23,212 bases of DNA from Elusimicrobiota bacterium (GCA_043813605.1 JBDRKX010000069.1:1-23212), one strand, 5' to 3'; positions 540 to 15,956 are shown, numbered from the stretch's first letter. The notes: a model not told the origin generated them from the letters alone. Translations and numbers: made by a program.

Positions 540-818
540 TCATCCCATTCTACACCATGCCAAGTTTCTTATTCTGATAATTACATCCGATGTCTTTTTG
601 CGCATATCAGCAATATACCGACAATCAATACAATCCGCATCGTTATTATCATGATCCGGACATCTACACAGCATATCCGCCGCCTTATGTAATTGTTCCG
701 TAAATTCCGCCTTCTCCAGTCCTGTTTCACCGGAATTGATTTTATCTGTAATATTTTTTATTACAGACTCCTGTTTTTGAAATATTAAACACCTTATTCT
801 TGCTCTATTTTCTCTCAT
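540..818 (-). CDS. Hypothetical Cys-rich small protein (92 aa), possible metal-binding
   Basis: ORF track. Contains a CRCPDHDNNDADCIDCRY cluster (CxC-x9-CxxC). Its start overlaps the stop of the upstream gvpJ/K fusion (shared position 818), suggesting translational coupling. No family recognised. Confidence 0.4.
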   Translation of the reverse strand: MRENRARIRCLIFQKQESVIKNITDKINSGETGLEKAEFTEQLHKAADMLCRCPDHDNNDADCIDCRYIADMRKKTSDVIIRIRNLAWCRMG

Positions 819-1351
819 TACATTAAATTTCCAAGAGGCCCCAGGTCTATATTCATGTCCTCATCGCTTATGCCGAAGACGGCCTGCACTTCCTGAAGCT
901 TTTTTTTGACAGCCTTGAGGCTCAAACCCAGCTTTTGAGTTTCGACGTCGGAAAGAGAGCCTCTTTTAACCCTTCTAAAAGCCTCCCTTTCCATTACCTT
1001 CCTTATAAGTTCGATCACGCACAATATCAGTTTGGCCAGCCCCTGTTCTGTCTCAGTGGGACTGTCAGCATTGATAAGTTTCGGTATATTTTCTTCGGCT
1101 CTCTTTATCTCGTATTGGAGTCTGTTTATATACTCGGCATCTTCCCTGCTGAGCTCTTCATTTTGAGGACTGAATCTTTTACCCGACAACTCTTCCGCTT
1201 TTGATATTGAAGTAAGAACAAGCCTGAGCCCCAGAAAAACCAGGTCGACGTCAGCTACCCTTATGGTCATTTCTCCGTTTATCACGGCCCCTTTATCAAT
1301 AACCGTATCCAGGGCGTCCGCCAGTGTTACATTATCGCTTCTTCTTGCCAT
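818..1351 (-). CDS. gvpJK: Gas vesicle protein, GvpJ/GvpA-like N-terminal domain fused to GvpK-like C-terminal domain
   Basis: N-terminus LADALDTVIDKGAVINGEMTIRVADVDLVFLGLRLVLTSISKAEEL matches the GvpA/J/M core. C-terminus LAKLILCVIELIRKVMEREAFRRVKRGSLSDVETQKLGLSLKAVKKKLQEV...DLGPLGNL matches the GvpK signature (LxLvLtvvELLRqLmErQAlRR ... LDLGPLG). Confidence 0.8.
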   Translation of the reverse strand: MARRSDNVTLADALDTVIDKGAVINGEMTIRVADVDLVFLGLRLVLTSISKAEELSGKRFSPQNEELSREDAEYINRLQYEIKRAEENIPKLINADSPTETEQGLAKLILCVIELIRKVMEREAFRRVKRGSLSDVETQKLGLSLKAVKKKLQEVQAVFGISDEDMNIDLGPLGNLM

Positions 1352-1360
1352 TTTCTTGTC

Positions 1361-2164
1361 CTATAAAAAGCTGTAAGCGGGCCACGGCCCGCTGTATTCA
1401 AGATAAAAACCTTTTTCTTTTACCTTGTTATTCAGAGTTTCAGCATAATCCTTGAAATGTCCTGTTTTTTCCGAATCAATCAGGTAGGCCGTATTCGATA
1501 TCATCGGTTCCGCTTTTCCCGTAAGCGCTTTATTAAGGACCTTATTTTCGGACGAATCCTCCGCCAGGCTGTTAAATCCTGCAAATATCTCTCCGGCAAT
1601 AAGACTTATTTCCTTATCCTTCTCACTTATCATATTATCCTTCAGTTCTTCTTCCATAAAAAAAGCCAGGCCTTCAGGTATTGGCTTCGATTCTTCGTCT
1701 TTTTTTTCTGATGTTCTATTTTTATCTATGATTATCTGTTCAAGTTTTTTTCCATCTCCGAGATACGCCTTCACGCTCCATTCCTGTCTGTTTCTGATCT
1801 TATCCAGAAATTTTCTGAATTCAGCATAGTCTTTTTTCAGGCATTTCTTTAGACTTATTTTCCCCTTGAAAACAGCGCCGAATCTCATCGGGATCAAATC
1901 TATGACGCCGCTCTCCGTTTTCATAACTTCTTCTATGACTCTTTCATGAGCGACAGCTTTTTCTTTTATCCATTGCAGGTCATCTTTAGCTTTCTTCTGA
2001 ATTTCTTCCATATTAAATATTCCCGGATCTATTCCGCTTACAATCGCCGCCAGATCTTTGTATATGATCTGATAAACTATGTTTTTCCCATCTATGCCTC
2101 TTATTTTCATATCGAGATCTATTCCGGTATTATCTCTTATGCAGTAAAGATATATATCGCTCAT
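1361..2164 (-). CDS. gvpL: Gas vesicle protein GvpL/GvpF family (paralogue 4)
   Basis: Motifs IYLYCI (YxYgI), AHERVIEEVM, PMRFGAVF and C-terminal EYSGPWPAYSF are typical of GvpF/L. Confidence 0.8.
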   Translation of the reverse strand: MSDIYLYCIRDNTGIDLDMKIRGIDGKNIVYQIIYKDLAAIVSGIDPGIFNMEEIQKKAKDDLQWIKEKAVAHERVIEEVMKTESGVIDLIPMRFGAVFKGKISLKKCLKKDYAEFRKFLDKIRNRQEWSVKAYLGDGKKLEQIIIDKNRTSEKKDEESKPIPEGLAFFMEEELKDNMISEKDKEISLIAGEIFAGFNSLAEDSSENKVLNKALTGKAEPMISNTAYLIDSEKTGHFKDYAETLNNKVKEKGFYLEYSGPWPAYSFL

Positions 2165-2165
2165 A

Positions 2166-2432
2166 TTATTTTACTCCGGCTAGTTCCGCCCTTTTGCTTT
2201 CGTACGCATGGATCTCCATATTACCATCCATTTTAATCTCGTATATATTTCTATCCTTCACGTGTACAGGCAATCCCAGAGACTTTACAAGTGAGCTGGC
2301 TTCATAGCCTTCCGCCTCGGCTTCCCATCCGCTGCCGACTTCTGTTACTTTGGTAATTTTTGGATTTTCAACATGCAATGACCTTTCTAAAAACTCAATG
2401 ATCCGCTTTTGAACCGTTTCAAAATTTCCCAT
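2166..2432 (-). CDS. Hypothetical small protein (88 aa) embedded in gvp operon
   Basis: ORF track. Tightly packed between gvpL and the gvpG duplicate. No motif recognised with confidence; may be a small gvp accessory protein (GvpO/R-like?). Confidence 0.4.
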   Translation of the reverse strand: MGNFETVQKRIIEFLERSLHVENPKITKVTEVGSGWEAEAEGYEASSLVKSLGLPVHVKDRNIYEIKMDGNMEIHAYESKRAELAGVK

Positions 2433-2565: not shown

Positions 2566-2730
2566 AAATTCCTCCTTTTTTTATTTAATTCCAGATTACT
2601 TTTCACTTTCTTTTCTTTTTCTGATTTCATCCAGCAGAACAAGGATTTCACTTTCCCGCGAGTTATATTCCTCTTCACTTATTTCATCAATTTCAAATCT
2701 CATTTGGAGCTCCATAAGTTCTTCTTTTAT
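2455..2730. repeat. About 150-bp tandem direct repeat covering the 3' half of gvpG and its truncated copy
   Basis: Near-identical strings at fixed 150-bp offset: tttctgatttcatc at 2468 and 2618; tattcctcttcac(c/t)tatttcatcaa at 2515 and 2665. Confidence 0.6.
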
Positions 2731-2835
2731 CTTTCCTTCATCAGTTGCTTCCTGCTCTGCCATATCATTGATCTTAGACCCGAGCCACATTACACCCTTT
2801 ACCGGAGCCAGCAGTATATCATCAATCAGAAACAT
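2596..2835 (-). CDS. gvpG: Gas vesicle protein GvpG
   Basis: N-terminus MFLIDDILLAPVKGVMWL matches the GvpG signature MFLvDDLLvrP. Acidic coiled C-terminus and 79 aa length are typical. Confidence 0.75.
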   Translation of the reverse strand: MFLIDDILLAPVKGVMWLGSKINDMAEQEATDEGKIKEELMELQMRFEIDEISEEEYNSRESEILVLLDEIRKRKESEK

Positions 2836-3754
2836 CCTGATATTCCTTTGTGTTTATAACTATGTTTATAAAATTAAACGGCGGCACGGTAGTTATGTAT
2901 TTGAATTTGATTTTATACCCGTATTCTTCATCAAGATCGTAGATCTTACGGTCAAATTCCTCTTCTATCTGCCTTTCAATGTAAAAGGCCGCATTAACGA
3001 TCATCCGGTCCCCGTAGGATTTATTCGCCCTGACATCCACCGCAAGAGGCGACAGCGTATCCATAATATTTTTTTCATGTTCCTCTTTTTCCTGTTCAAG
3101 CGCGGCTTCCACCAGTCTTCCTATCTCGACACACTGGTAGTAGTTTTTCCCCGGAGGCAGTTTCTCCGCTTTTATTTTCAATGCTTTTATCTCTTCATTT
3201 TTTTCCATTACCTCTTCATACACAATATCCATATCAAATAAGGCCCTGAGACCCAGTTCTTTCCTGTTTTCATTCTGCTCAAGGAGGTCTTTGAAATTAT
3301 CGTATGTCTTTTCCAGTATACGCATGATCTTATTTTCATCTTCAGCGATAGTATTGAATCTGACCGGGAGTACATTGTACTGTTTCATCACCTGTTCAAT
3401 CGCTCTTTCATGCGAAATAAGATTGTCCCTTGAAGTCGAATACTCTGATAAAGGCGAATCGCTTACAACAGCAGCGATGTCATTAAAACTGACAGTATAT
3501 ACGACATCTCTCCTGCCTCCGATTCCCAGCTGCCCGAAAGTTTCGGGTTTATCGGTCGGGATAATACAATATATATATTTTGCGTCCTTTACCCCGTTAG
3601 AAACGCCTCCAACTTCAATAGGGGGTACATCAACAATCTCAGACGGCGGTTTAACGCCGCCGCCTTCTTTCGCGCAAAGTGCGCCTGTTCTAACGGGGTT
3701 TACATCTGTTTCCATATCACATCTCCCACTCTTTAGGAGAAATTCTAAAATCAA
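2822..3754 (-). CDS. gvpL: Gas vesicle protein GvpF/GvpL family (paralogue 3) with N-terminal Gly/Pro-rich extension
   Basis: KYIYCII, SHERAIEQVM, LPVRFNT, NAAFYIER and C-terminal VPPFNF. The internal Met (METDV, start near 3715) would abut the upstream stop instead of overlapping it by 38 nt; the alternative start is plausible. Confidence 0.8.
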   Translation of the reverse strand: MILEFLLKSGRCDMETDVNPVRTGALCAKEGGGVKPPSEIVDVPPIEVGGVSNGVKDAKYIYCIIPTDKPETFGQLGIGGRRDVVYTVSFNDIAAVVSDSPLSEYSTSRDNLISHERAIEQVMKQYNVLPVRFNTIAEDENKIMRILEKTYDNFKDLLEQNENRKELGLRALFDMDIVYEEVMEKNEEIKALKIKAEKLPPGKNYYQCVEIGRLVEAALEQEKEEHEKNIMDTLSPLAVDVRANKSYGDRMIVNAAFYIERQIEEEFDRKIYDLDEEYGYKIKFKYITTVPPFNFINIVINTKEYQDVSD

Positions 3755-4484
3755 TAAAATTGAACACCGGCCAGGCTCCGGTATACATAAACTTTATATT
3801 TTTCTTATATTTCTCAGCTAACTCGTCCATTATGTTGTCAAATTCTTTTTCTCTGCCTTTATCTATAAGAAAAGCGGCATTCATAAACATCTCATCATTT
3901 CTAGTATCGTTTAGTTTGTAATCCAGAAAAGCTATTTTTAAGGCATCTAAGATTTCCCGGGCAGCCTCTGTTTTTTTCTCTTTCAGCGCGCTCTGGACCA
4001 TTTTTCCCGTCTCTATTTTTGCCTTTATGCTTTTGCCGGCGGCGTTCTCAAGGTTCTCCTTCAATTCCCTGATTTTATTATTCTCTTTAACTATTTCTTT
4101 ATACACGTTGCCCATGCTCTTCCACGTTCCGCTTACATTAAACTCTACCATGTGTTTGATATCCTTCAAAAGAGTTTTAAATTCATGGTATCTTCTGGAC
4201 AAAAGATCCCTTACCTCTTCTGCATTCGCAGCAATAGTACCAAACCGCACAGGAAGAACGCAGTCAAACTCCTTCATCACTTCTTCTATCACTCTTTCAT
4301 GCGCCAGCATATTCGCATTACTCGCAGAGATTTCTTCTGTCAGGAAATTGCTTACAACCACGCTCAAATCCATATATCCGATAGTTAAGACATCGTCTCC
4401 TCTCAGGCCTATACCGATAGGCCCGAAATTTCTTTCCTGCCGGGTCTCTATGATGCAGTAAATATATCTTCCTTCTTTAGTCAT
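3717..4484 (-). CDS. gvpF: Gas vesicle protein GvpF (paralogue 2)
   Basis: RYIYCII, AHERVIEEVM, LPVRFGTI, NAAFLIDK, GAWPVFNF. Canonical GvpF architecture and length (255 aa). Confidence 0.85.
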   Translation of the reverse strand: MTKEGRYIYCIIETRQERNFGPIGIGLRGDDVLTIGYMDLSVVVSNFLTEEISASNANMLAHERVIEEVMKEFDCVLPVRFGTIAANAEEVRDLLSRRYHEFKTLLKDIKHMVEFNVSGTWKSMGNVYKEIVKENNKIRELKENLENAAGKSIKAKIETGKMVQSALKEKKTEAAREILDALKIAFLDYKLNDTRNDEMFMNAAFLIDKGREKEFDNIMDELAEKYKKNIKFMYTGAWPVFNFIDFRISPKEWEM

Positions 4485-4485
4485 T

Positions 4486-5523
4486 TTATTCCATCACCTG
4501 CACCAGCAGGGCGCTTTTCTCAAAATCTTCTTTCCTGAAAGAACACCTTTCTTCCTGGCAATACTCCATAAGTACCTTGTAAGCATTCGCGGTATTGCCG
4601 AACTTATTCCCGCTGTCATCAGGATTTCTATCCGGATGGGTCAACAGAGCGGACTTCCGGTAGGCTTTTTTTATCTCATCCCTGTTCGAATAGTCCTGCA
4701 GCCCGAGCAGGTTTTTCGCGCTGCATATTTCTTCAAACGGCATCTTTTTTATTCCAAGCGTACAAAAATTGTAAGGCGGAAGAGGGCCCACGCATCTGAA
4801 ATTGACTTTATCGTTAAATTCCATGTCCAGCTTTTCGACAACGGAATCAAACTTCTCCTGCTGGTCCTTATCCACCGAACAGGCTATATTGATGATCATG
4901 CTCTCATCCATGACTTCATTTATCTTAAAACCCTGTACAATGTTTTCCAGCGTTTTCTGTATTTGACCGGCATATTTCCCTCTCTTTGTATTTAAAGCTT
5001 TCTTTACCATAAATCCCACCTGCATCTGATCTTCTATTGTTATTCCTTCAGGCTTGGATAAGAGAGTCTCTTTCAATGCCACGATCTCAGGTTCCCGGCT
5101 TGCTTCCTGCAGCGCTGAATTAAAATCGCTCCATACTGCGACTACATCGACTTCTACAATATTTTCTATCTTTCTGAAAACATCTTTGATTACGCCGTAT
5201 CCTTTTTCCAGCGCTTCGCTCACTTCGTCCTCGCCGCATACAATTGTCCCAATACTTACCGGCATGACAGGATAATACTTCATTATCTTCTCTACTATTA
5301 TCTGGTGACCGAGCAATATTTTGGCAAGAGATTCTTTGTTCATATTTCTGAGATCCGTGACTTCCGAATCACTGATTAAAGCTGATATATCCTGAAAACT
5401 TACAGCGCTGACCCTTTCCGCCTGCAGAATATTCATCATTTCTATCGACGGACTTCCGGTATTGATTATCCCGTAAATATATTTTCCCGTTACATTCAGC
5501 ATATCAGGCCTTCCTTTTTTCAT
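4486..5523 (-). CDS. GvpF/L-like protein with C-terminal J-domain (DnaJ-type, HPD motif)
   Basis: The first 270 aa carry GvpF/L motifs (KYIYGII, PVMPVSIGTI, GPLPPYNF). The C-terminus DYSNRDEIKKAYRKSALLTHPDRNPDD...KFGNTANAYKVL is a J-domain helix II-HPD-helix III. Confidence 0.8.
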   Translation of the reverse strand: MKKGRPDMLNVTGKYIYGIINTGSPSIEMMNILQAERVSAVSFQDISALISDSEVTDLRNMNKESLAKILLGHQIIVEKIMKYYPVMPVSIGTIVCGEDEVSEALEKGYGVIKDVFRKIENIVEVDVVAVWSDFNSALQEASREPEIVALKETLLSKPEGITIEDQMQVGFMVKKALNTKRGKYAGQIQKTLENIVQGFKINEVMDESMIINIACSVDKDQQEKFDSVVEKLDMEFNDKVNFRCVGPLPPYNFCTLGIKKMPFEEICSAKNLLGLQDYSNRDEIKKAYRKSALLTHPDRNPDDSGNKFGNTANAYKVLMEYCQEERCSFRKEDFEKSALLVQVME

Positions 5524-7657
5524 CGTTATTCTTCATTAACCTGATTGCTTCCAGAAAATGTCCTTTTTTAATAACCGGGTCTTTTTTGCTGTCAGGATTC
5601 TCTATGGCCTCCCTTATCGCAAGAATGGACGCCTTTCTGCAGATATATTCAATATCAGCGCCGGTTTTATTTTCCGTTTCTACGGCTAATTTTTTCAAAT
5701 CTATATCTTTTGCCATAGGTTTTTTACCGGTATGTATTCTGAAAATACTTTCTCTGGTTTTTTCATCGGGCGTCGGAAGTTTTAACAGAATGTCGAATCT
5801 GCCGCTTCTGAGTAAGGCCGGGTCGATAAGATCCAGCCTGTTTGTGGCGGCCAGGACAACCACGCCTTTAAGCTCTTCGATACCGTCCATCTCGGTGAGC
5901 ATCTGGCTGATCACCCGTTCCGCGACATGAGCCCCGTCCCCCGCAGATCCTTTTTTAGGGATCAAAGCGTCGATCTCGTCAAAAAACAGGATTGTTGGAG
6001 AGGCATGCCTGGCTATTTTAAACAGCTCGTGTATCGCCTTTTCGCTTTCCCCTATATATTTGGATATGAGCGACGGCCCTTTTACCGATATAAAGTTCAC
6101 CTTGCTCTCATTGGCCACCGCTTTGGCAAGTAGTGTCTTGCCCGTACCCGGTTCGCCGTAGAGCATAATGCCTTTCGGCGGGTTGGTGTCCATCTTTTTA
6201 AAAATATCCGGATATTTTATTGGCCACTCTACGGCCTCTTTCAGTTCCGCCTTCTCATTTTCCAGGCCTCCTATATCTTCCCATTTGACATCCGGCACTT
6301 CTATAAAATATTCCCGTACCGCCGAGGGTTCCACTTCTTTCATGGCCTCCATGAAATTATCCATGGTCACTTCCAGCTGAAGCAGTGTCTCATAAGGTAT
6401 ATCCGCCATCTCAAAATCTATTACAGGCAGGATCTTTCTCAGGGCTACCATGGCCGCTTCCCTTGCCAGAGCTTCCAGGTCAGCCCCGACAAATCCGTGC
6501 GTTATCTCCGCTATCTTCTGCATGCTCACATCTTCAGAAAGGGGCATTCCCCGGGTATGTATATGCAGGATATCGAGCCTTCCGTTCTTATCGGGTATAG
6601 GCACCGCTATTTCCCTGTCGAACCGCCCCGGCCTCCGGAGCGCCGGATCTATAGTATTGGGAATATTTGTGGCGCCTATTACTATTACATGGCCCCTGGA
6701 TTCCAGCCCGTCCATGAGCGACAGGAGTTGGGCGACGACCCTCCGTTCCACCTGTTTTTCTCCTCCCATGTCTTCTCTTTTTGGCGCTATTGCGTCTATT
6801 TCGTCTATAAATATTATCGCGGGCGCGTTTTTCTGGGCCTCTTCAAAAATACTCCTTAACCGGCCCTCGCTTTCGCCATAGAATTTCCCCATGATCTCCG
6901 GGCCGGATATGTGGGTGAAAAATGCGTCCGTCTCGTGGGCTACAGCCCGGGCTGTCAATGTCTTCCCTGTACCGGGAGGTCCGTATAGAAAAACTCCTTT
7001 TGGAGCTTCTACCCCTAACCGTTCGAATACTTCAGGATATTTCAGCGGGAGCTCTATCATCTCACGTATTCTCTGTACCTGAGGGCCCAATCCCCCTACA
7101 TCCTCGTACGATATTTTAATCGGGCCGGCTTTTTCCGACAGATTTGTCTTTACCTTTATCACGCTTGCGGAATCTACAATGACATTGCCGCAGGGACTTG
7201 TATCTGTTACCTTGAAATCACACCATCTCGATCCGAAGAGAGTAACTCTCACTCTGTCCCCGGCCGACACAGGTAAACCTTCAAGAAGGGAACCGATGTA
7301 TTTCGCGTCCTTATCCCTCTCAAGCAGGCTGGATACGGTTAAAGGTTCAATACTGATCTTTTGAGCCGGATTATATTCAGCTTTATGTACCTTTAGTTTC
7401 TCATCCAGCCCCACCCCTGCGTTATCTCTGGATATCCCGTCAATCTGAATGATCTTTTTTCCTCTATCTTCGCTATAAAGCGGCATTGCCTTTGCGGGAG
7501 TCTTTCTTTTTCCTTCTATCTCTATTATCTCTCCCACTTCTATATTGAGTAACTTCATATCTTCAGGGCCGATCCTGGCTATCGCCCTTCCTACGCTGTT
7601 CGGGAGAGCCTCCTGCACTTTTAAACTTATTGATTTATCTTTCTGTTTTGTATTCAT
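5504..7657 (-). CDS. Cdc48/VCP/VAT-like AAA+ ATPase (N-domain plus D1 and D2 AAA modules)
   Basis: Two Walker A sites, [17 protein letters not shown] and [17 protein letters not shown]. Two Walker B sites, [10 protein letters not shown] and [10 protein letters not shown]. Arginine fingers [13 protein letters not shown] and [10 protein letters not shown]. An N-terminal region of about 180 aa precedes D1. Confidence 0.9.
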
Positions 7658-8589
7658 GAAAATAACAGCTCCTTGAATCCCTTCAACACCTCTATGCCTT
7701 TCACCTCATTTGCCTGCAGCGGGACAATGGTTATTTTAAGCGTATTGAATTTTTCTTTTATCGCTTTTATATATTTCTCCTGGTCCTTTTTTTTAGCCTG
7801 GCAAAAATCGCATTTTCTGGATTCTAAAACATTATTTACTACTAACTGTTTTACATTTATGCCGTATTTATTAAGACTGTTTACCAATCTTTCAGTCTCT
7901 GAAATAGCCATATCTTCCGGTATGGTCACCGGTATAAACTCGCATTTCGAACTGTCTTTCAATATGCTTTCAACTTTTTTTACCGTCTTTTTCAGATCTA
8001 CAAGAAAATGATCGCCTTCATCGGGTTTATAATCTCCGGAAAGCCTTTTTACTATATATCTATACTTCCATCTCATTTGAGCCATTACTTTGATCCAGTC
8101 ATCTAACAGTCCCGGCAGGGTAAGCAGCCTTAAGGCATGCCCGGTGGGTGCGGTATCAACAATATATTTATCGTATCCCGATTTTTCTATTAAATCTACT
8201 ATTGTTTTAAATCCCATAACTTCGTCTAATCCGGGGATAGACAATGCGAACAGGGACTCGATATCTTCATCATCCATATAAGTCGAAGTTCCCAGGATCG
8301 TCTTTATCTCATTCTCATGCTCAATTTTAAATTCTTCAAAGGTCTCTTCTGCGCTTATTTCAAGGCCGCTTAAATGCTCGAAAGTTTTAATCTTTATTAT
8401 TGAATTCCCGATCTTCTGCCCTATACTGTCTGCCAGAGAATGGGCCGGGTCTGTAGATATCATTAAAGTATTATACACTTCCGATAAGTAAATTCCGGCA
8501 CCTGAAGCGCAGGTTGTTTTGCCTACTCCGCCTTTCCCGCCGAACAGAATCAGCTTTAACGAATCTTGTCTTAATCCGGATAAGCTCAC
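7654..8589 (-). CDS. ArsA/Get3-family ATPase
   Basis: Deviant Walker A LFGGKGGVGKTTCAS, ISTDPAHSLADS, switch II VDTAPTGHALRLL, and a CDFC (CxxC) motif near the C-terminus of the type Get3 uses for Zn-mediated dimerisation. The 4-nt ATGA-type overlap with the downstream Cdc48-like gene suggests translational coupling. Confidence 0.8.
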   Translation of the reverse strand: MSLSGLRQDSLKLILFGGKGGVGKTTCASGAGIYLSEVYNTLMISTDPAHSLADSIGQKIGNSIIKIKTFEHLSGLEISAEETFEEFKIEHENEIKTILGTSTYMDDEDIESLFALSIPGLDEVMGFKTIVDLIEKSGYDKYIVDTAPTGHALRLLTLPGLLDDWIKVMAQMRWKYRYIVKRLSGDYKPDEGDHFLVDLKKTVKKVESILKDSSKCEFIPVTIPEDMAISETERLVNSLNKYGINVKQLVVNNVLESRKCDFCQAKKKDQEKYIKAIKEKFNTLKITIVPLQANEVKGIEVLKGFKELLFS

Positions 8590-8595
8590 TGCTTC

Positions 8596-9126
8596 CTACT
8601 TTTTTATTCTTATTTCTAATATTCCGTTTGTATAGGAAAACGAAAGATTTGCGGCCTCGGCTTCTGCCGGGAGCAGTATTTCTTTATGGTACTTTCTTGA
8701 CCCGCCGCTGGCTGAAATATCAAGAACATCGCCTTTTAAATCCAGCTTTATATCTTTCTGATTTATCCCCGGCATTTCGGCATATACCCTGATCTCATTC
8801 TTCTCGTCAAACACATCAACAATAGGCTCTCTTTCTTCTTCTACCCTGGCGCCCTTATCAGTCTTTTTAATATTTCCAAACGACTCTACTACGGGTTTAC
8901 CACCCACGGCCGACTTTATTGAAAAGCCGAATACTCCTTTGGCTCCATTCTTAATATTGCCGAAGTCTATCTCTCCCTCTTTTTTTATTTCGCCGCCGGC
9001 TTCTTCCAGTTTCTGAGCAAGATCTACTAATTTTTCTATACCCTTAAATATTCCTCCCACGCTCAGCTTTCCTATGCCGAAATCCACTTCTATATCTTCT
9101 TTTTTTTTCTCTTTTTTCTTTACCAT
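8596..9126 (-). CDS. gvpH: Hsp20/alpha-crystallin family small heat-shock protein (GvpH-like)
   Basis: The C-terminal alpha-crystallin domain PIVDVFDEKNEIRVYAEMPGINQKDIKLDLKGDVLDISA...LPAEAEAANLSFSYTNGILEIRIKK includes the GILEI/IxI-like tail. The Lys/Gly-rich N-terminus is encoded over an A9 homopolymer. Confidence 0.8.
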   Translation of the reverse strand: MVKKKEKKKEDIEVDFGIGKLSVGGIFKGIEKLVDLAQKLEEAGGEIKKEGEIDFGNIKNGAKGVFGFSIKSAVGGKPVVESFGNIKKTDKGARVEEEREPIVDVFDEKNEIRVYAEMPGINQKDIKLDLKGDVLDISASGGSRKYHKEILLPAEAEAANLSFSYTNGILEIRIKK

Positions 9127-9145: not shown

Positions 9146-9460
9146 TTAATAACTTATAGCCATTCTTTTAATAGATCTGGCGGACTTGTTCTCTACAGTT
9201 TTAATTTCAGTTTCACTTTGTACTTCTTTTTGTAAACTCTCCAGACGCCCGTTGATACTGTCTATTTTTTTTATCAGACTTGCTTTTCTTTTTTCCATTG
9301 ACTCAAACTCCTTTTTAAGCCTGCCCTGTTCCAATATAAGAGAATACATCTCCAGGCACGAGGTCCTCTGCATCTTTGGAATTGAACGAAGCCCTGTGCC
9401 GCGCAGGCTCTTTATGTCTGTGAGGCCCGGCAACTGCTCTAATCTCTTTATGTTATGCAT
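9146..9460 (-). CDS. Hypothetical coiled-coil protein (104 aa) in gvp operon
   Basis: ORF track. Predicted coiled coil (LKKEFESMEKRKASLIKKIDSINGRLESLQKEVQ). Its start overlaps the gvpN stop by 13 nt. No family recognised. Confidence 0.4.
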   Translation of the reverse strand: MHNIKRLEQLPGLTDIKSLRGTGLRSIPKMQRTSCLEMYSLILEQGRLKKEFESMEKRKASLIKKIDSINGRLESLQKEVQSETEIKTVENKSARSIKRMAISY

Positions 9461-10386
9461 CGTGCTACACGCTCCTTTTGATTTTTCTCAACCAGCTCCC
9501 TGATTATCTCTTTGACTCTATCCTGGTTGGATCTCGAACCTACTCTGCTGGTTTCTGATGCAAGGATGTCCTGGCATATCTGTTTAAACTCCCCGTTTGA
9601 TTTTATTGGAGAGAGGTTCCGCATTTTAAGGGTCTTGGCAATCATAATGCATCCGCGTATAGTAGGAGAAAATTCGCATTTTCCGGAATCCCTTAAACCT
9701 CTTGCGATATTGACTATTATTTCCGCATGCTTTTTTGACATGTTTGATTTCGACCTGGTTATAGCTACCTCTGTCTCATAATCAAAGTGTTCCAAATCTA
9801 AGGTCACCATTCTATCCCTCAATGCATCCTGGCTTCTGTGAACACCTGCGTATTCTTCCGGATTACTGGTAAATATAGCCTTAAAATCTGCGTTAACTTT
9901 CAGGTATGGGCTGTCTCCTCTTGATTCAGGTAAGTCCATTATCCTTTCCTGCAGAATGGAAAGGAGTATGTTATTTGCTTCGGGCCGGGAACGGGTAAAC
10001 TCGTCGTAAATAAGTGTGTAACCGTATTTACACGCAACTGTAAGACGGTTATCTACCCATTTTTTCACCATATCCTCTTCTGTCTTTAATACCCGGGATA
10101 TGAATCTGTCAACAACTTTTTTTATCCTGTAACCATACTCGCCGCCAACAAGACTGGATGTTGTAAACTCTTCATCACCGTGTATCATAACAACGGGCCT
10201 GCCTAGCTTGCTGGCAATATGCATAGCCAGAGTTGTCTTACCGGTTCCCGACGGGCCCCTCAAATGAACCGGAAAACCCGAATTAATATAGGAAATTGCT
10301 CTACCGGTAATATTCTGAACATATTTTGTGTTCACAAAATCCGGCATAGGTGTCGGGTCAATTACTGTACTTGTATCATCAATCAT
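9448..10386 (-). CDS. gvpN: Gas vesicle protein GvpN (MoxR/CbbQ-like AAA+ ATPase)
   Basis: FPVHLRGPSGTGKTTLAMHIASKLGRPVVMIHGDEE (Walker A plus GvpN-specific flank), Walker B TLIYDEFTRSRPE, length 312 aa. Confidence 0.9.
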   Translation of the reverse strand: MIDDTSTVIDPTPMPDFVNTKYVQNITGRAISYINSGFPVHLRGPSGTGKTTLAMHIASKLGRPVVMIHGDEEFTTSSLVGGEYGYRIKKVVDRFISRVLKTEEDMVKKWVDNRLTVACKYGYTLIYDEFTRSRPEANNILLSILQERIMDLPESRGDSPYLKVNADFKAIFTSNPEEYAGVHRSQDALRDRMVTLDLEHFDYETEVAITRSKSNMSKKHAEIIVNIARGLRDSGKCEFSPTIRGCIMIAKTLKMRNLSPIKSNGEFKQICQDILASETSRVGSRSNQDRVKEIIRELVEKNQKERVARCIT

Positions 10387-10605: not shown

Positions 10606-10983
10606 TCATGACATTTTTTTTGCACCTTTAGCAGACCTATTCCCATCTGCTCCCATCCTTTTATTTCTTAAAGTCTCAGCCATCAGGTTCCAGATTTGCC
10701 TACTTTCGGCCAAATCTTCTTTTACTTCCTCTTCCTTTCTTCTGAAATCCTCTTTTAAAGTGTTGACACTATTAACCAGGTCTTCTCTTGTTTCCTGTAA
10801 GCCAATCTTCAACTCATTACTCATCCTCTGGTGCATTCTTTTAGACTCGATTAAGAACTTCCTTGCCTTATCTCTTATAGCTTTCGCATCCTTTTTGAGG
10901 TTTTTAATGCCCCTTCTTCTATCTTCGTAACTCATTACAATGTCTTCACTAAGAGACTCCATCCCTGTTGACACTTTACCCAT
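10606..10983 (-). CDS. Alpha-helical repeat protein, paralogue C of a three-member family (candidate GvpC-like)
   Basis: N-terminal motif SEDIVMSYEDRRRGIKNL shared with the ORFs at 11332-12135 (TEDIVGSFNERVKAIGDL) and 12152-12733 (LKNVLTSYDEGVHSIGSI). Internal FLIESKRMHQRMSNEL resembles the FxxEHKxMSxEL repeats of paralogue B. Confidence 0.5.
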   Translation of the reverse strand: MGKVSTGMESLSEDIVMSYEDRRRGIKNLKKDAKAIRDKARKFLIESKRMHQRMSNELKIGLQETREDLVNSVNTLKEDFRRKEEEVKEDLAESRQIWNLMAETLRNKRMGADGNRSAKGAKKMS

Positions 10984-10986
10984 AAA

Positions 10987-11331
10987 CTAACCTCCTTTTA
11001 GAACAACTCCTTTGCCCCCACATTTGATACAGGGTAATCCGCTACCTCCTGTCCGGCCGGTGCCTTTGCACTCTTCACATTCTTCGGTTGAACCTATTAC
11101 TGTAACGCTTCCCTTGCCACCGCATACTGTACAGGTAATACGGCTATGAGGGTAAATACCACTGCCTTTACAAAAAACGCATTTAATCACAGGTTCCTTA
11201 ACTTCAACCTTACCCTTACCCAGGCATACCTGACAAGTAGAAAGCTTTGATAACAGCTTAAAAGGATCCTTTCCTTTTCCATTACAAAAAGCACATTTAA
11301 TCAGGCTCATATTTTTATCTTTTCGCTCCAA
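10987..11331 (-). CDS. DnaJ-type zinc-finger repeat protein with six CxxCxGxG motifs
   Basis: CAFCNGKG, CQVCLGKG, CVFCKGSG, CTVCGGKG, CEECKGTG and CIKCGGKG in 114 aa. The motif is diagnostic of the DnaJ Cys-rich domain (Pfam DnaJ_CXXCXGXG). No J-domain in this ORF. Confidence 0.7.
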   Translation of the reverse strand: MERKDKNMSLIKCAFCNGKGKDPFKLLSKLSTCQVCLGKGKVEVKEPVIKCVFCKGSGIYPHSRITCTVCGGKGSVTVIGSTEECEECKGTGRTGGSGLPCIKCGGKGVVLKGG

Positions 11332-12135
11332 CTACCTTTTATGTACTGCACAGAATTTAGAACCCTTAACAGATTTTCCCTTACAGTTTTTCCCGGACTT
11401 CGTAGTGCCAGCACATTTACTTACTCCCCTGCCCTTTTTAACAGTTTTGCTGATCTCTGATGTCTTTTTTCCGGCATCAATCTTAGGCACTACACCTTCC
11501 TTCCTGGCTTTGTTCAATACTGAAGACATTCCCTGCCAGGCTTCCTTTGCTTTTTTCATATCCAAATCACATTCACCCAGGAACCCTTTAACATCACTGA
11601 CAATACCGCCAACATATTTACCTAAACTCTTTCTCAATGCATCACTCATATCAGAATGTTCTTCATTAAACTCCTTTAACTTCTGTGAAACATCGCATTC
11701 GATATTTTTAATGCTTTCATTGATACTCCCCATCATATCTTTAAAGTCTTTTAACCTATCAACTTCGCCTTTTGCTAAGCCTTTTTTAAGAAAATCCGCC
11801 ATCTCCTTATGCTCTTTCTGAAAACTTTTGATCATATTCCCTACTTCATCGGTCATATTCCCAACAAAATTTCCTAAGTCTTTTGTCAGTTCAATACTCA
11901 TCTGTTTATGTTCTGTCTGGAATTCTTTCAGAAAATTTTGTACGTTCTTTGACAATCCATCTACAAATGCAGCCAAATCATCTGCCTGTTCCTTACTCAT
12001 CTTTTTTCTGTCCAACTTGAACTTTTTCAAAGTTTCTTGGGTATCAACAGTTAAATCACCAATTGCCTTTACCCGCTCATTAAAGGACCCAACAATGTCT
12101 TCTGTAACCTTTTTCATTTCATTTGCAACAACCAT
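11332..12135 (-). CDS. Alpha-helical protein with exact 33-residue repeats (candidate GvpC analogue), paralogue B; C-terminal Lys/Cys/His tail
   Basis: Phe39/Phe72/Phe105 anchor three repeats at exact 33-aa spacing: KFKLDRKKMSKEQADDL, EFQTEHKQMSIELTKDL and SFQKEHKEMADFLKKGL. A looser fourth copy is EFNEEHSDMSDALRKSL. The tail reads KCAGTTKSGKNCKGKSVKGSKFCAVHKR. It lies second after gvpA, near where gvpC usually sits. Confidence 0.55.
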   Translation of the reverse strand: MVVANEMKKVTEDIVGSFNERVKAIGDLTVDTQETLKKFKLDRKKMSKEQADDLAAFVDGLSKNVQNFLKEFQTEHKQMSIELTKDLGNFVGNMTDEVGNMIKSFQKEHKEMADFLKKGLAKGEVDRLKDFKDMMGSINESIKNIECDVSQKLKEFNEEHSDMSDALRKSLGKYVGGIVSDVKGFLGECDLDMKKAKEAWQGMSSVLNKARKEGVVPKIDAGKKTSEISKTVKKGRGVSKCAGTTKSGKNCKGKSVKGSKFCAVHKR

Positions 12136-12151: not shown

Positions 12152-12733
12152 TTACTTACTTTTACTATACTTCCCCAGCATCACTTTAAAATCATTTATC
12201 TTTAGGACTTTCCCCTTGGAAAGAAGCTCTCCGAGGTCATCTGCCAATGCCTTTTGTATGTTTTGAAATTCGATAAGCTTTTCTGAAATCTCTTTTTTGC
12301 TCTTTTCCTGATCGCTGATCGCTTCTCTATTAACTTCATATAACTCCCGGGACTGTATCTTCTTACCACTAATTAGAGAAACCTTAATAAGTTCCATATT
12401 TTTCCTTAACTTATATGCCGCTTCTTTCTGCTCATTAAGGTATCTCTTAAATAACCTCCTGATTTCTTCCATGGTTTGGTCCTGCACAGAAATTATTTCT
12501 TTCATCATATTGTCAAAATCTTTTTTCCGCAGATGTTCATTTATAGAAAGATTGTTTTTTAGTTCCTCACTTATTTTCTGCCTTTCCTTATCTGCGCCAA
12601 GTATGGATTCCTGGAAACTTCCGATGATCAGATGGGCATCATCAAATATTGACCCTATACTGTGAACACCTTCATCATAAGAAGTCAAAACATTTTTTAG
12701 AATTTTACTTGCATTTACTGTTGTGTTAGTCAT
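12152..12733 (-). CDS. Alpha-helical repeat protein, paralogue A (candidate GvpC-like), immediately downstream of gvpA
   Basis: Shares the N-terminal motif and a repeat-like segment LIEFQNIQKALADDL with paralogues B and C. RBS AAGAAGGA precedes the ATG. Confidence 0.5.
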   Translation of the reverse strand: MTNTTVNASKILKNVLTSYDEGVHSIGSIFDDAHLIIGSFQESILGADKERQKISEELKNNLSINEHLRKKDFDNMMKEIISVQDQTMEEIRRLFKRYLNEQKEAAYKLRKNMELIKVSLISGKKIQSRELYEVNREAISDQEKSKKEISEKLIEFQNIQKALADDLGELLSKGKVLKINDFKVMLGKYSKSK

Positions 12734-12851: not shown

Positions 12852-13058
12852 TTACGCTGCTGTTGCGGTCAAGCCTATTGCTTCAGCATATTTCAGGTAA
12901 GTTTCTACTGATGCAACTACAACACGCGCTTCGATAGCAAGCAGCTCGATTCCCACTAATGAGAATCTCACCCATGCGTCAATCACGACCCCCTTGTCCA
13001 GTATCCGGTCGACAACATCGACAAGACTGGAAGAACCAATTGCTTTTTCCATTGCCAT
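12852..13058 (-). CDS. gvpA: Gas vesicle major structural protein GvpA
   Basis: [63 protein letters not shown] is the near-invariant GvpA core. AGGAGG RBS (plus strand cctcct 13067-13072) lies 8 nt upstream. Confidence 0.95.
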
Positions 13059-13235: not shown

Positions 13236-13263
13236 ATTATACCTATAATATATTATTTGTCAA
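13236..13263 (-). promoter_or_regulatory. Consensus sigma70-type promoter for gvpA (TTGACA-N16-TATAAT)
   Basis: Minus strand reads cTTGACAaataatatattataggTATAATagg. The -35 element is at 13263-13258 and the -10 element at 13241-13236. Predicted TSS is near 13229, giving a 5' UTR of about 170 nt. Confidence 0.5.
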
Positions 13264-13289: not shown

Positions 13290-15494
13290 TCAAGAAAGGT
13301 TATTGACACATTCTATGAATTTCTTCAAATTAAACGGTTTTGACATGTATTCATCCGCGCCGCATCTGAATATCCGTTCTTTAGTGCCGGGCATATCATA
13401 ACCGGTTATAGCCAGGATCTTCATACCCTTGTTATCAGGGTCATTGTGTATTGATTCGCACAACTGAAAACCATTGATCCCCGGCAGCTTCAGATCCAGG
13501 ATAACCAGATCCGGCCTCAAGGCCTTCACTTGTTTAAGAGCGTCTAATCCATCACCGGTTGACGCAATTTCATAATCATATTTTGATTTCTTCAGCAGCA
13601 GCCTTGTTATGATGTTTATTATGTTATTTTCATCATCTACTATCAGCACCTTTTTCTTCTTCTTTTTTTCTTCTAAATCCGAAACGCTCTTCTTATATTC
13701 ACGGGACTTCGATATACGGCGTTCATTCCATGGATACAATTCCGATATCCTTACATTATTCAATACTATTCCCATGATTGAGGCATGTACTTTTTCAAGC
13801 TGGTCTTTAGCCTTTTTCAAAAGAGCCCCTGAAGATATCACATTATGATGGACCAGGATAACTGCATCAACCTTAGTAGACAGGATAACAGGTTCTGCTG
13901 AAAGGAGCAGCGCCGAAGAGTCAAATATGATCAATTCATATTCTTTCCTGGCCTGCTCTATAAATTGATCCATCTTCCGGGAATTCAGCATATTAGCCGG
14001 ATTCTCTTCTTTTCCGCATGTTATTATTTTTAAATTTTCTTTGTTATCCAAGCTAAATGCATTTTCCCCGTATTTTTCAGGAATATCTTTCACCGCGTTC
14101 TTCCAATCCATCTTACCCATGATTATTTCACTTAAACCGCCGCCCGGCGGAAGACCGAATATCTGCCGGATCAAAGATTCACCCTTACCGGCATCAATAA
14201 ACAGCGTTTTTATCCCGGCGGCAGCGCTCGCTATCGCATAATTAACTGCAATCAGCGTTTTCTCTTCTTCAAGGCAGACACCGGTGAATAATAAGACTCC
14301 CGCATTCTTCTCCGGCAGCGTAAATTTAATATTCATCCATAAAGTAAAATATGCTTCGGTAACAGATGCTTTTGCAGAATAATTAAAGAGCAGCCTGTTT
14401 CTGAGACTTTCTATCTTACAAGATGCATTTGAACGTTTAAAAAAATTGAAATCGGACTTAGCTGTTTTTTTGTCCTTTATCTGAGGGATGACTCCAAGAA
14501 CGGGGATATTTATGTCATTCTCCATTTTTTCTATGTCCCGCAAAAAGACCTCATTTGTACCTGTTTTTAACGTTAATATAAACCCGAATATGACCCCGAA
14601 AATTCCACCGAACAACAGTTTCACAGGCAGATCCGGTTTTAACGGTTGAACGGGGATAACAGCGGGGGAGATCACCTGCATACTGGCGAGATTATCAAAA
14701 TCTTCAAACATAGCTTCTCGATATTTCTCTTTCAGCTGTTCACGGAATTCTTCATCCGCTTCGATCTTTTTCAATATAAGGTCTTTTTGAACAGCCTTAT
14801 CCAGTTCCTTTTCTACTTCTTCGATCTGATCCTGTATTTCGATAACAGCCGGGTGCTTATAATTAAACTTCCTACGCAGCTTTATCTGATCGAGCTTAAG
14901 TCCGCTTAAGTCTGTTTTAAGCTCATTTGCATTATTAATGAATCCGCGCTTTTCTGTTAAGTCATCTATCTGGCTCCTTTTCTGTTCTATAAGTGCCCCT
15001 ATATCATCTAGCTGTTCCTCATACCGGCTTTTTACTTTCTGCCCTTTTTTAATTTTCTGATCCTCGGTTTTTTCTATATATATCTTAACCATGTTGTTAA
15101 CAATTCCTGCTGCTCCTTCGGCGCTGTCGAGCCTGGCAGTAAGTTGAATAATATTGGTGCCTTTTACCCGTTCTGCTGAAACATGTTTCTGTAAATAATC
15201 GATCTTCATGTTTTTATCATCAAAGGCAATACCCGGATACAGGATTCCCGTATATTCTGCCGCTTTATATATAACTGAATAACTTTTTATTTTTTTGCAT
15301 TCAGTCGCGATCAATTCACTAACTGCCATACCGTACTGGTTTTCCATAATTTTGTCTCTTTCTGAATGCAATTTTATTTCAAGTAAAGCGCTGCTTTCAA
15401 AAACCGGTTTCTGTACAAAGCTGACAACTATTGCGGTAACTATGCCGATAATAACGCTATAGATTATCTTTTTCATGTTTCTGTTAATAATCAT
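13290..15494 (-). CDS. Wzc/PCP-2-like polysaccharide co-polymerase with degenerate BY-kinase P-loop and C-terminal receiver (REC) domain
   Basis: N-terminal TM plus Wzz-like region, coiled coil, second TM LLFGGIFGVIFGFILTL. The kinase-like domain has its Walker A position as FTGVCLEEEKT instead of GEGKS/T, with Walker A' LFIDAG and Walker B LIIFDSS. C-terminus: KKVLIVDDENNIINIITRLL...DLVILDLKLPGINGF...KPF, a CheY-like REC. Confidence 0.75.
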   Translation of the reverse strand: MIINRNMKKIIYSVIIGIVTAIVVSFVQKPVFESSALLEIKLHSERDKIMENQYGMAVSELIATECKKIKSYSVIYKAAEYTGILYPGIAFDDKNMKIDYLQKHVSAERVKGTNIIQLTARLDSAEGAAGIVNNMVKIYIEKTEDQKIKKGQKVKSRYEEQLDDIGALIEQKRSQIDDLTEKRGFINNANELKTDLSGLKLDQIKLRRKFNYKHPAVIEIQDQIEEVEKELDKAVQKDLILKKIEADEEFREQLKEKYREAMFEDFDNLASMQVISPAVIPVQPLKPDLPVKLLFGGIFGVIFGFILTLKTGTNEVFLRDIEKMENDINIPVLGVIPQIKDKKTAKSDFNFFKRSNASCKIESLRNRLLFNYSAKASVTEAYFTLWMNIKFTLPEKNAGVLLFTGVCLEEEKTLIAVNYAIASAAAGIKTLFIDAGKGESLIRQIFGLPPGGGLSEIIMGKMDWKNAVKDIPEKYGENAFSLDNKENLKIITCGKEENPANMLNSRKMDQFIEQARKEYELIIFDSSALLLSAEPVILSTKVDAVILVHHNVISSGALLKKAKDQLEKVHASIMGIVLNNVRISELYPWNERRISKSREYKKSVSDLEEKKKKKKVLIVDDENNIINIITRLLLKKSKYDYEIASTGDGLDALKQVKALRPDLVILDLKLPGINGFQLCESIHNDPDNKGMKILAITGYDMPGTKERIFRCGADEYMSKPFNLKKFIECVNNLS

Positions 15495-15506: not shown

Positions 15507-15956
15507 TTATCCGTCAATTATACTCCCATGTTTTTGATCCTTTATTTTTAACGCTTCCCTGACCTTGTCATAAAGGTGTGCAAGCGTAAACGGTTTGGGC
15601 AGATAAAAATCAACGCCTGATGAAAAGCCCTCTTCCACTTCACCTACTCTGCTTTTTACTGTCAGCATGATAATCGGTATATGCCTGTGTTTAACGATAT
15701 CGCTTCTTTTCAATTTCCATGCTACTTCTAAACCGTTCATAGCGGGCATCTCATTGTCCAGGATGATAAGGTCCGGATGCTCTTTTTTTACTTTTTCAAG
15801 AGCTTCGAGTCCCTCTGCAGCAGTTATGATCCTGTAATCACATTCAAATATGCGTTTTAATATATTTCTTATGTATTCTTCATCATCTACTATGAGAATA
15901 GTATTTTTTTTCATTTTATTATTTTCTTTCGTACATGTTTTTAAGGATCCTGGCAT
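15507..15956 (-). CDS. Single-domain response regulator (CheY-like receiver)
   Basis: NTILIVDDEEYIRNILKRIFE...DLIILDNEMPAMNGLEV...YLPKPF. The true start is more likely the internal Met (MKKNTILIVDD, ATG at 15914), which abuts the upstream stop, than the track start at 15956, which overlaps it. Confidence 0.8.
   Translation of the reverse strand: MPGSLKTCTKENNKMKKNTILIVDDEEYIRNILKRIFECDYRIITAAEGLEALEKVKKEHPDLIILDNEMPAMNGLEVAWKLKRSDIVKHRHIPIIMLTVKSRVGEVEEGFSSGVDFYLPKPFTLAHLYDKVREALKIKDQKHGSIIDG

Follow-up and report, generated by a model that had tools for sequence, protein, structure and literature searches.

What is an ATPase of the ArsA/Get3 family doing in the middle of a gas-vesicle operon? 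The question is raised by a gene on a contig of 23,212 bp from an Elusimicrobiota metagenome-assembled genome (MAG; GCA_043813605.1, JBDRKX010000069.1:1-23212), which was analysed over its full length and is called the window here. The gene lies at 7654-8589 on the minus strand, as do all genes of the surrounding gas-vesicle (gvp) cluster, and an original prediction had taken its product for a Get3-like, not ArsA-like, ATPase. We found that this Get3-like protein has the architecture of Get3 and not that of canonical ArsA, that it probably represents a gvp-linked clade of its own and not a Get3 orthologue, and that its gene is the centre of a tightly packed Hsp20/Get3-like/Cdc48 trio that is conserved in gvp clusters across phyla. 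We propose that this single-domain, Get3-type P-loop ATPase of a gas-vesicle lineage may chaperone hydrophobic segments of Gvp proteins together with Hsp20 and Cdc48, a proposal that we consider about evenly poised between right and wrong.

A single-domain ArsA/Get3-family ATPase encoded in a gas-vesicle cluster

According to the list of open reading frames (ORFs) and its translation, the Get3-like gene encodes 311 amino acids from a GTG start. This start is credible because homologue alignments begin at residue 1, the first internal methionine (residue 43) lies past the P-loop, and AGGAAG is found just 5' of the GTG. The protein matched Pfam PF02374 (ArsA_ATPase) over residues 12-310, which is the entire protein (E 5.1e-81; 272.7 bits, cutoff 24.3), and NCBIfam TIGR00345 (GET3_arsA_TRC40) with 266.5 bits (cutoff 135), scores that place membership of the ArsA/Get3 family far beyond chance. 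There is a single Walker A and a single ArsA_ATPase domain. All four motifs named in the original prediction (GKGGVGKTT, DPAHSL, DTAPTGH and CDFC) were mapped in the ORF, and its location inside a gvp cluster was borne out by gvpA, gvpN, four gvpF/L genes, gvpG and a gvpJ-gvpK fusion, all on the minus strand. The features of the gene are as follows:

7654..8589, minus strand: gvp-linked Get3-like ATPase, single-domain ArsA/Get3 family (ORF; Pfam, NCBIfam, PDB and fold matches)
8512..8538, minus strand: deviant Walker A (P-loop) GKGGVGKTT, residues 18-26, with signature lysine K19; invariant in 39 homologues
8434..8451, minus strand: switch I DPAHSL, residues 47-52, with catalytic aspartate D47; aligns with DPAHN of Get3 and DPASN of ArsA
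8137..8157, minus strand: switch II DTAPTGH, residues 145-151 (motif search; alignment to Get3 and ArsA)
8056..8097, minus strand: helix 7/8 'lid' segment WIKVMAQMRWKYRY, residues 165-178, with the clade-specific K[YH]RY signature; within the TRC40-insert-sized region
7801..7812, minus strand: CDFC (C260, C263), putative zinc-binding dimerisation motif; aligns with the CxxC of Get3

By alignment, the deviant Walker A, switch I and switch II form an intact set of catalytic motifs. The CxFC was kept in 120 of 120 close homologues, and C260 and C263 align with C285 and C288 of yeast Get3 and with the CxxC of Get3 from M. jannaschii and M. thermautotrophicus. The cysteines of the protein are at positions 27, 216, 260 and 263, all of them family-invariant in a 39-sequence alignment; C27 (8509-8511, minus strand) and C216 (7942-7944, minus strand) match neither the CxC of Get3 nor the metalloid ligands of ArsA.

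Four such cysteines could also mean that the protein is a metal or Fe–S carrier NTPase of the Mrp/NBP35 type, whose interface CxxC, possibly with C27 and C216, would bind a cofactor for another protein of the cluster. Weak matches to NCBIfam MrpORP (E 3.3e-4) and, over residues 186-297, to Pfam PF10609 (NUBPL iron-transfer P-loop NTPase) point the same way. The latter, at 26.4 bits, is below its cutoff of 27.1, and we rejected this extremely unlikely reading.

Get3 architecture rather than that of an arsenite pump

The Pfam family name and JGI labels speak for the canonical arsenite-pump ATPase ArsA, an identity that some database labels ('arsenite-transporting ATPase') imply. Direct comparison argued otherwise. 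ArsA of E. coli R773 (1F48) has two tandem domains, about 580 amino acids in all, with metalloid-binding C113, C172 and C422, lacks CxxC in both halves and is encoded in an ars operon, whereas the Get3-like protein has one domain, carries CDFC at the zinc-ligand site of Get3 and shows no cysteine at any of the three metalloid columns. The alignment on which this comparison is based included archaeal Get3 together with E. coli ArsA and yeast Get3 reference sequences that were checked to be 100% identical to 1F48 and 2WOJ. Scores fell below the cutoffs of both the ArsA equivalog TIGR04291 (arsen_driv_ArsA; 125.7 bits, cutoff 650) and ArsA_halo (165.6 bits, cutoff 800) in NCBIfam. Pfam scans of the Get3-like ORF and of 24 other larger minus-strand ORFs in the 23-kb window found no arsB, acr3, arsD, arsR or arsC.

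Get3 also outranked ArsA in searches. With phmmer against all PDB chains, the top match was Chlamydomonas ARSA1 (245 bits, summed over its two halves), and Get3 of M. jannaschii (193 bits), M. thermautotrophicus (187 bits) and fungi and animals (131-167 bits) all scored above E. coli ArsA (128 bits). Between the switch II histidine and the next strand, a stretch that contains the TRC40 insert, lie 67 residues in the Get3-like protein, 66 in yeast Get3 and 74-76 in archaeal Get3, but only 53 and 40 in the N and C halves of E. coli ArsA. All 13 of the hydrophobic positions listed for helices 7-9 of yeast Get3 (L183 to I226) are hydrophobic in the Get3-like protein.

We observed the same ranking for the predicted fold. 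An AlphaFold2 model (mean predicted local distance difference test score (pLDDT) 74.4; predicted template modelling score (pTM) 0.75) has helices at residues 80-137, 148-184 and 193-211 that correspond to helices 4-9 of Get3, the latter two with pLDDT 56-81. With this model, the top 50 Foldseek matches were all Get3/TRC40, with template modelling (TM) scores of about 0.7-0.79, a range that takes in open, closed and client-bound structures of eukaryotic Get3. Structure comparison values were 26.1 for M. thermautotrophicus TRC40 and 24.5 for A. fumigatus Get3, followed by the M. tuberculosis Get3-like proteins BagB (22.3) and BagA (21.3), E. coli ArsA (20.4), Nostoc All4481 (18.7), Arabidopsis Get3d (15.7) and MinD/ParA/McdA (13-14). 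The client-binding helical subdomain that the original prediction had proposed to seek by structure prediction is thus predicted in the model, at low confidence, with the right length and hydrophobic periodicity.

Taken together, the sequence ranking, the cysteine and CxxC alignment, the insert length and the fold comparison uphold the Get3 arrangement over that of ArsA, and the protein was not placed inside arsenite-efflux ArsA, the finding that had been named in advance as counter-evidence. We therefore rejected canonical ArsA, the probability of which is practically nil. We also considered a ParA/MinD-like positioning ATPase that would space or cluster gas vesicles, given that the deviant Walker A dimer mechanism is common to ArsA/Get3 and ParA/MinD. 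Against this stand the presence of the entire Get3 helical subdomain in the model, the lack of a visible amphipathic membrane-targeting tail, a Pfam scan of the ORF that returned no DNA-binding domain, and partners that are chaperones (Hsp20 and Cdc48) and not a ParB/McdB-like adaptor. On these grounds this reading was rejected as well, as a long shot.

A gas-vesicle-linked clade separate from Get3 orthologues

The protein has much in common with known Get3. Archaeal Get3/TRC40 (M. jannaschii 3UG6/3UG7; M. thermautotrophicus 3ZQ6) is likewise a single domain, of about 310-350 amino acids, with the same P-loop, switch I and switch II and with a CxFC that aligns exactly (CDFC in M. jannaschii, CEFC in M. 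thermautotrophicus). With yeast Get3 (2WOJ/4XTR), to which it is about 30% identical, it shares a homodimer-type architecture, the CxxC at the zinc position, the insert-sized segment and the hydrophobic groove positions of helices 7-9.

By contrast, motifs by which Get3 is regulated and docked are missing. The CxC motif on the strand after helix 9, which is frequent in cytosolic eukaryotic Get3 and part of its redox switch, is absent: the protein reads KCEFIPVTI where yeast Get3 reads TTFVCVCIS, and C216 aligns with T236, not with C240 or C242. The analogy with a redox-regulated holdase, which the original prediction had drawn, therefore loses the CxC half of that switch. Nor is there a DELYED motif for binding Get1/Get2/Get4. 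The identity of this acidic receptor-binding motif follows Table 1 of PMC6593721 and general knowledge; where eukaryotes have it, the Get3-like protein (KEKFNT) and archaeal Get3 (KEKFGD, REKFSD) have an IKEKF-type sequence.

The lid region sets the protein apart from archaeal Get3 as well. Its helix 7-9 segment is 7-9 residues shorter, helices 4-9 contain 4 methionines compared with 13-14, and M172 to Y178 (MRWKYRY) are invariant in the close family where archaeal Get3 has an LR(K/R)Q-type sequence. The K[YH]RY signature, a feature defined in this analysis, takes the form MRWKYRY in the helix 8 lid of the single-domain clade; it recurs in two-domain gvp-linked relatives, as AKHRYM in the N halves and LKYr in the C halves, and is absent from archaeal Get3, yeast Get3 and E. 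coli ArsA in the alignment. Helix 7/8 of the clade is conserved like the catalytic core, with 16 of 36 positions at least 95% conserved.

In a neighbour-joining tree of 125 domains (100 bootstraps), the protein fell into a single-domain clade of 28 members with a support of 88 (100 for a core of 21) and with no reference protein inside. Get3 of M. jannaschii and M. thermautotrophicus formed a separate clade (support 98) with metagenomic relatives that are not gvp-linked. Because deeper nodes had a support of at most 45 and the halves of E. coli ArsA behaved as long branches, no sister group was assigned. The tree and motifs suggest that the protein is not a Get3 orthologue but belongs to a gvp-linked clade of its own. 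With this separate clade, no CxC, no DELYED and a basic and aromatic lid, the original prediction of a Get3 identity went too far.

The protein also differs from Get3d/NosAFP (3IGF, 8ELF), in which an alpha-crystallin domain is fused to the Get3 domain; here the two are encoded by separate adjacent genes, no C-terminal alpha-crystallin domain is fused, the nucleotide site of the Get3-like protein is intact, and the NCBIfam NosAFP model NF050088 scored 37.6 bits (cutoff 325). When 1.84 billion cluster representatives were searched exhaustively, the best-scoring relatives outside its own family were two-domain proteins of about 650 amino acids, with scores summed over both halves, and most of these have CxxC in both halves. 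Among the longer relatives we saw no Get3-like/Hsp20 fusion, the only fusion being TPR + ArsA + ArsA. The cluster representative P0159, which is not in the window, is such a protein: its 984 amino acids comprise N-terminal TPR repeats and two ArsA/Get3-like domains, an arrangement that recalls the TPR co-chaperones that work with Get3 in eukaryotes. A plasmid search by tblastn with the Get3-like protein matched only ArsA-family genes of haloarchaea and enterobacteria, all at less than 36% identity.

A conserved trio with Hsp20 and Cdc48

The Get3-like gene is flanked on both sides by chaperone genes:

8596..9126, minus strand: Hsp20/alpha-crystallin protein, 176 amino acids, directly upstream (Pfam HSP20, 7.6e-08)
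5504..7657, minus strand: Cdc48-family double-ring AAA+ ATPase, 717 amino acids, directly downstream (TIGR01243, 921.8 bits, cutoff 802.65)
7654..7657, minus strand: ATGA overlap, in which the Get3-like gene stops (TGA) and the Cdc48-like gene starts (ATG) (sequence)

The Hsp20 ORF additionally gave weak Pfam matches to ArsA_HSP20 and GvpH, and reached 141.4 bits against a cutoff of 140 with the NCBIfam model for archaeal Hsp20. The Cdc48-like protein consists of CDC48_N, CDC48_2 and two AAA domains, with aromatic pore loops (KFYG and KYIG) and Walker B in both rings and without an HbYX proteasome-docking tail.

No more than 6 nt lie between the stop of the Hsp20 gene and the GTG of the Get3-like gene. 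At the other end, the original prediction had placed the start of the Get3-like gene over the stop of the Cdc48-like gene and had argued from this overlap for stoichiometric co-expression. The ATGA overlap is real, but its direction is the reverse: TGA ends the Get3-like gene and ATG opens the Cdc48-like gene, so the Get3-like gene is the upstream one. The 6-nt gap and 4-nt overlap are compatible with translational coupling, and the overlap may argue for coupling to the downstream Cdc48 gene; on stoichiometry it says nothing.

We looked up four close relatives and scanned metagenomes, which returned 80 loci, and compared them by tblastn with all cluster proteins of the window. Close homologues (62-70% identity) occurred in MAGs labelled Omnitrophica, Nitrospirota, Nitrospinota, Bacteroidota and Desantisbacteria, a spread over phyla that implies horizontal movement of the cluster. 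Relatives with at least 53% identity in the Get3-like clade were all single-domain proteins, and their surroundings were constant: an Hsp20 gene was adjacent upstream in 24 of 24, a Cdc48 gene adjacent downstream in 23 of 23, and gvp clusters surrounded all 12 loci whose flanks extended 3 kb or more in both directions. Two-domain relatives (30-45% identity) were gvp-linked too (30 of 30 loci in which one flank reached at least 3 kb) but kept a different order; Hsp20 was adjacent upstream in 0 of 32 and present anywhere in the locus in 4 of 16, and the corresponding figures for Cdc48 downstream were 1 of 31 and 12 of 16.

Among single-domain relatives flanked on each side by 3 kb or more, five were found outside gvp clusters (L005, L033, L072, L074 and L084). 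Four of these (L033, L072, L074 and L084; 33-40% identity) grouped with archaeal, eukaryotic and ArsA references, outside the clade of the Get3-like protein. The fifth, L005 (9577-10903, plus strand, in a Cytophagaceae MAG; 49% identity), is a member of that clade without CxxC; its locus has neither Hsp20 nor Cdc48, and a 134-residue ORF without family match precedes the gene. L005 was also the sole locus returned when genome contigs were scanned with the Get3-like protein alone. The tightly packed Hsp20/Get3-like/Cdc48 trio is thus conserved in gvp clusters across phyla. On the basis of the Hsp20, Cdc48 and gvp counts, the clade with bootstrap 88 and the common K[YH]RY motif, we conclude that the Get3-like protein belongs to a lineage dedicated to gas-vesicle formation.

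These counts also bear on whether the protein is a true targeting factor for tail-anchored proteins, with a client encoded elsewhere in the genome and a gvp location that reflects co-regulation or hitch-hiking. Its Get3-like fold, CxxC and TRC40-insert-sized segment would suit such a factor, and archaeal Get3 homologues bind tail-anchored proteins (PMC6593721). Yet the gvp synteny is strict across phyla, and the relatives that are not gvp-linked group elsewhere, with Get3 of M. jannaschii and M. thermautotrophicus. DELYED is missing, as is the Get1/2/4/5 context of eukaryotic Get3, and the cluster holds no candidate for a tail-anchored client. In addition, the presence of TRC40-insert Get3 homologues in bacteria was described as uncorrelated with the number of predicted tail-anchored proteins, except for the two-domain tandem homologues of Proteobacteria and Cyanobacteria (PMC6593721). 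We regard tail-anchored-protein targeting as very unlikely.

A possible chaperone role in shell assembly

Given its fixed Hsp20 and Cdc48 flanks, the Get3-like ATPase most likely helps to handle very hydrophobic shell proteins. The most hydrophobic segments encoded in the cluster are residues 24-42 of GvpA (maximum 19-residue hydropathy 1.82), followed by residues 32-50 of the GvpJ-like domain (1.62) and the N terminus of GvpG (1.41). In the mechanism that we propose, the ATPase would form a zinc-bridged homodimer whose ATP-bound closed state creates a composite hydrophobic groove. Closed by the family-specific K[YH]RY lid, this groove would hold an aggregation-prone hydrophobic segment of a Gvp protein, the best candidates being GvpA or the GvpJ-like protein and then the N-terminal helix of GvpG, and would keep it soluble from synthesis until insertion into the growing protein shell. 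Hsp20 may serve as an ATP-independent first holdase, and the Cdc48-like unfoldase, with aromatic pore loops in both rings, may extract or unfold misassembled subunits and feed them back. ATP hydrolysis would then free the client at the vesicle, presumably to GvpF, GvpG or GvpN. The ATPase would be an accessory chaperone of this type of cluster and not a universal requirement for gas vesicles. In its most specific form, which we put forward only tentatively, the proposal is that a Get3-type ATPase has been recruited to an organelle free of lipid membrane, where, in a relay with Hsp20 and Cdc48, it captures the amphipathic GvpA or its GvpJ-like paralogue in an ATP-gated, K[YH]RY-lidded groove and delivers it to the growing shell.

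Several observations weigh against this chaperone role. To begin with, the function of the Get3-like protein is inferred wholly from homology and synteny. In the AlphaFold2 model, confidence is lowest in the helical subdomain (pLDDT 56-68 at residues 150-200), and only one of the five models scored well. Helix 7/8 is among the most conserved parts of the protein and rich in arginine, lysine, tryptophan and tyrosine (MRWKYRY), unlike the variable, methionine-rich lid of promiscuous Get3, and could be a surface that binds a partner (Hsp20, Cdc48 or GvpF) and not a client lid. CxxC is absent from four gvp-linked single-domain relatives (L022, L023, L028 and L030). To our knowledge, the well-studied clusters of Bacillus megaterium, Serratia, Anabaena flos-aquae and Halobacterium make gas vesicles without an ArsA-like gene, so the Get3-like protein is dispensable in principle. 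A hydropathy search of the cluster proteins found none that is tail-anchored or has a transmembrane helix. According to cryo-EM work cited in PMC11445434, the shell protein turns its hydrophobic N-terminal region to the inside of the finished gas vesicle, where it makes up the inner surface; the client would thus not be a membrane-spanning helix like the known clients of the Get3 groove.

One possible explanation that competes with assisted assembly is that the trio serves quality control and recycling, clearing GvpA that is misassembled, aggregated or collapsed by pressure, and is not needed for building vesicles. Cdc48 would extract subunits and the Get3-like ATPase and Hsp20 would hold them, which would protect the cell from proteotoxic GvpA. 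Such a division of labour would suit a Cdc48-family unfoldase whose two rings each carry an aromatic pore loop and which lacks a proteasome-docking tail, two holdase-type chaperones at its side, and a trio that is self-contained and tightly packed. It is known in general that other clusters assemble vesicles without the trio. GvpA has been described as prone to proteotoxic species (PMC11445434). However, the trio lies mid-operon, with gvpN on one side and gvpF on the other, and its genes appear to share a transcript with the structural genes. We consider recycling unlikely, though it is the main rival to a role in assembly; the two roles are not mutually exclusive and are inseparable in silico.

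The surrounding gas-vesicle cluster

The remaining features of the cluster, in the order of transcription, are these:

13236..13263, minus strand: sigma-70 consensus promoter-like site TTGACA-16-TATAAT, 12/12 (consensus match only)
12852..13058, minus strand: gvpA, major shell protein and most hydrophobic candidate client (Pfam Gas_vesicle, 2.4e-16)
12152..12733 and 11332..12135, minus strand: two coiled-coil proteins right after gvpA (no Pfam family)
10987..11331, minus strand: 114-residue protein made solely of DnaJ-type CXXCXGXG zinc-finger repeats, between gvpA and gvpN (43-74% identity in most related loci)
10606..10983, minus strand: third coiled-coil paralogue (no Pfam family)
9448..10386, minus strand: gvpN, AAA_5 ATPase (Pfam AAA_5, 3.6e-21)
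between gvpN and the Hsp20 gene, minus strand: 104-residue ORF (gene order)
4486..5523, minus strand: GvpF with C-terminal J-domain (Pfam GvpL_GvpF; DnaJ 1.5e-11, HPD motif present)
3717..4484 and 2822..3754, minus strand: two more GvpF (Pfam GvpL_GvpF)
2596..2835, minus strand: GvpG (Pfam GvpG)
2166..2432, minus strand: 88-residue ORF
1361..2164, minus strand: fourth GvpF (Pfam GvpL_GvpF)
818..1351, minus strand: GvpJ-like/GvpK fusion, with a Gas_vesicle domain of GvpA/J type at residues 9-47 and GvpK at 97-177 (Pfam)
540..818, minus strand: cysteine-rich 92-residue ORF at the cluster end (no Pfam match)

The sigma-70 site lies about 180 nt 5' of gvpA and is the sole 12/12 match in 13.4 kb. 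In those loci of the single-domain type (at least 53% identity to the Get3-like protein) that include gvpN, GvpN is 62-78% identical. The fusion of GvpF to a J-domain, suggestive of Hsp70 recruitment to a factor in gas-vesicle assembly, is also annotated in L001, L003 and L004. GvpJ and GvpK are fused in L003 too and encoded by separate genes in L001 and L004. The GvpF J-domain, the DnaJ zinc-finger protein, Hsp20 and Cdc48 give the cluster an unusual wealth of chaperone components, in keeping with the published opinion that GvpA requires chaperones (PMC11445434).

The three coiled-coil proteins are weak paralogues (blastp E 1e-7 to 1e-9) with a recurring F-x-x-E-x-x-x-H-x-x-M-S motif, and the one of 267 residues ends in a cysteine- and lysine-rich tail; they could be GvpC-like shell-binding proteins. 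The cysteine-rich ORF at the other end of the cluster has counterparts of 30-48% identity in L001, L003, L004, L016, L032, L040 and L041. Genes for polysaccharide synthesis and response regulators lie 5' of gvpA. In two of their products a polysaccharide-synthesis protein is joined to a response-regulator receiver (REC) domain, one combining a Wzz chain-length determinant, a P-loop and REC and the other a Polysacc_synt_2 epimerase/dehydratase and REC (13290-15494 and 19827-22124, both on the minus strand), and next to them are encoded a protein that consists of REC on its own (15507-15956) and one with a PEGA domain.

Relation to earlier work and implications

Part of this picture has been reported before: ArsA homologues linked to gvp genes and accompanied by hsp20 were described in 2010, and Get3-like chaperones of bacteria in 2019. 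Castillo and Saier (2010, PMC2963123; clusters 4 and 6) reported that gvp clusters of Polaribacter, Pelodictyon, Geobacter, Anabaena/Nostoc and an acidobacterium contain arsA homologues and hsp20, noted that such homologues often occur with hsp20 and without arsR or other ars genes, and proposed that the ArsA homologue energises a step of gas-vesicle biogenesis. Their gvp-linked forms are two-domain proteins of about 640 amino acids, whereas the protein studied here has 311 amino acids and a single domain, with a CxxC putatively for dimerisation; the two-domain relatives found here share its K[YH]RY lid motif. Their account also contains no Cdc48 partner and no structural reading of the Get3 type, in contrast to the fixed Hsp20/Get3-like/Cdc48 order found here.

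Farkas et al. (2019, PMC6593721) reported many bacteria with TRC40-insert Get3 homologues, some fused to an alpha-crystallin domain, and suggested that they are general chaperones. These homologues have a predicted hydrophobic groove and are presented as structurally diverse and functionally uncharacterised, and gas vesicles are not mentioned. Tandem forms with CxxC are described there as unique among bacteria, and insert-bearing forms that have no alpha-crystallin domain as similar to archaeal homologues without CxxC; the combination of a single domain with CxxC, which the Get3-like protein has, is not described for bacteria in the text of the review. Our literature search found no paper that combines gas vesicles with Get3, no functional study of the Get3-like protein and no paper on a Cdc48-type ATPase in gas-vesicle formation. 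The single-domain CxxC form, the fixed Hsp20/Get3-like/Cdc48 module and the K[YH]RY signature that unites single- and two-domain gvp forms therefore appear to be undescribed.

GvpA, which needs chaperoning (PMC11445434), is extremely hydrophobic, and for the question of how it stays soluble and enters the shell, chaperone roles have so far only been hypothesised, for GvpF, GvpG and GvpN. If the Get3-like protein is not needed for vesicle formation, the finding amounts to a routine re-annotation of a mislabelled 'arsenite-transporting ATPase'. Even so, a lineage locked into gas-vesicle operons provides a testable set of clients (GvpA, GvpJ and GvpG) and partners (Hsp20 and Cdc48) for the role of a bacterial Get3. 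Should the trio prove to be a relay of chaperones, it could be moved between hosts as a module for better heterologous expression of gas vesicles, for example as acoustic reporter genes, and would support the idea that the process by which tail-anchored proteins are targeted evolved from an older, general holdase function. If Get3-type delivery to the shell is true, it would amount to a pathway of 'guided entry' whose destination is a protein monolayer at a gas–water interface, and bacterial Get3 homologues would gain their first defined physiological client.

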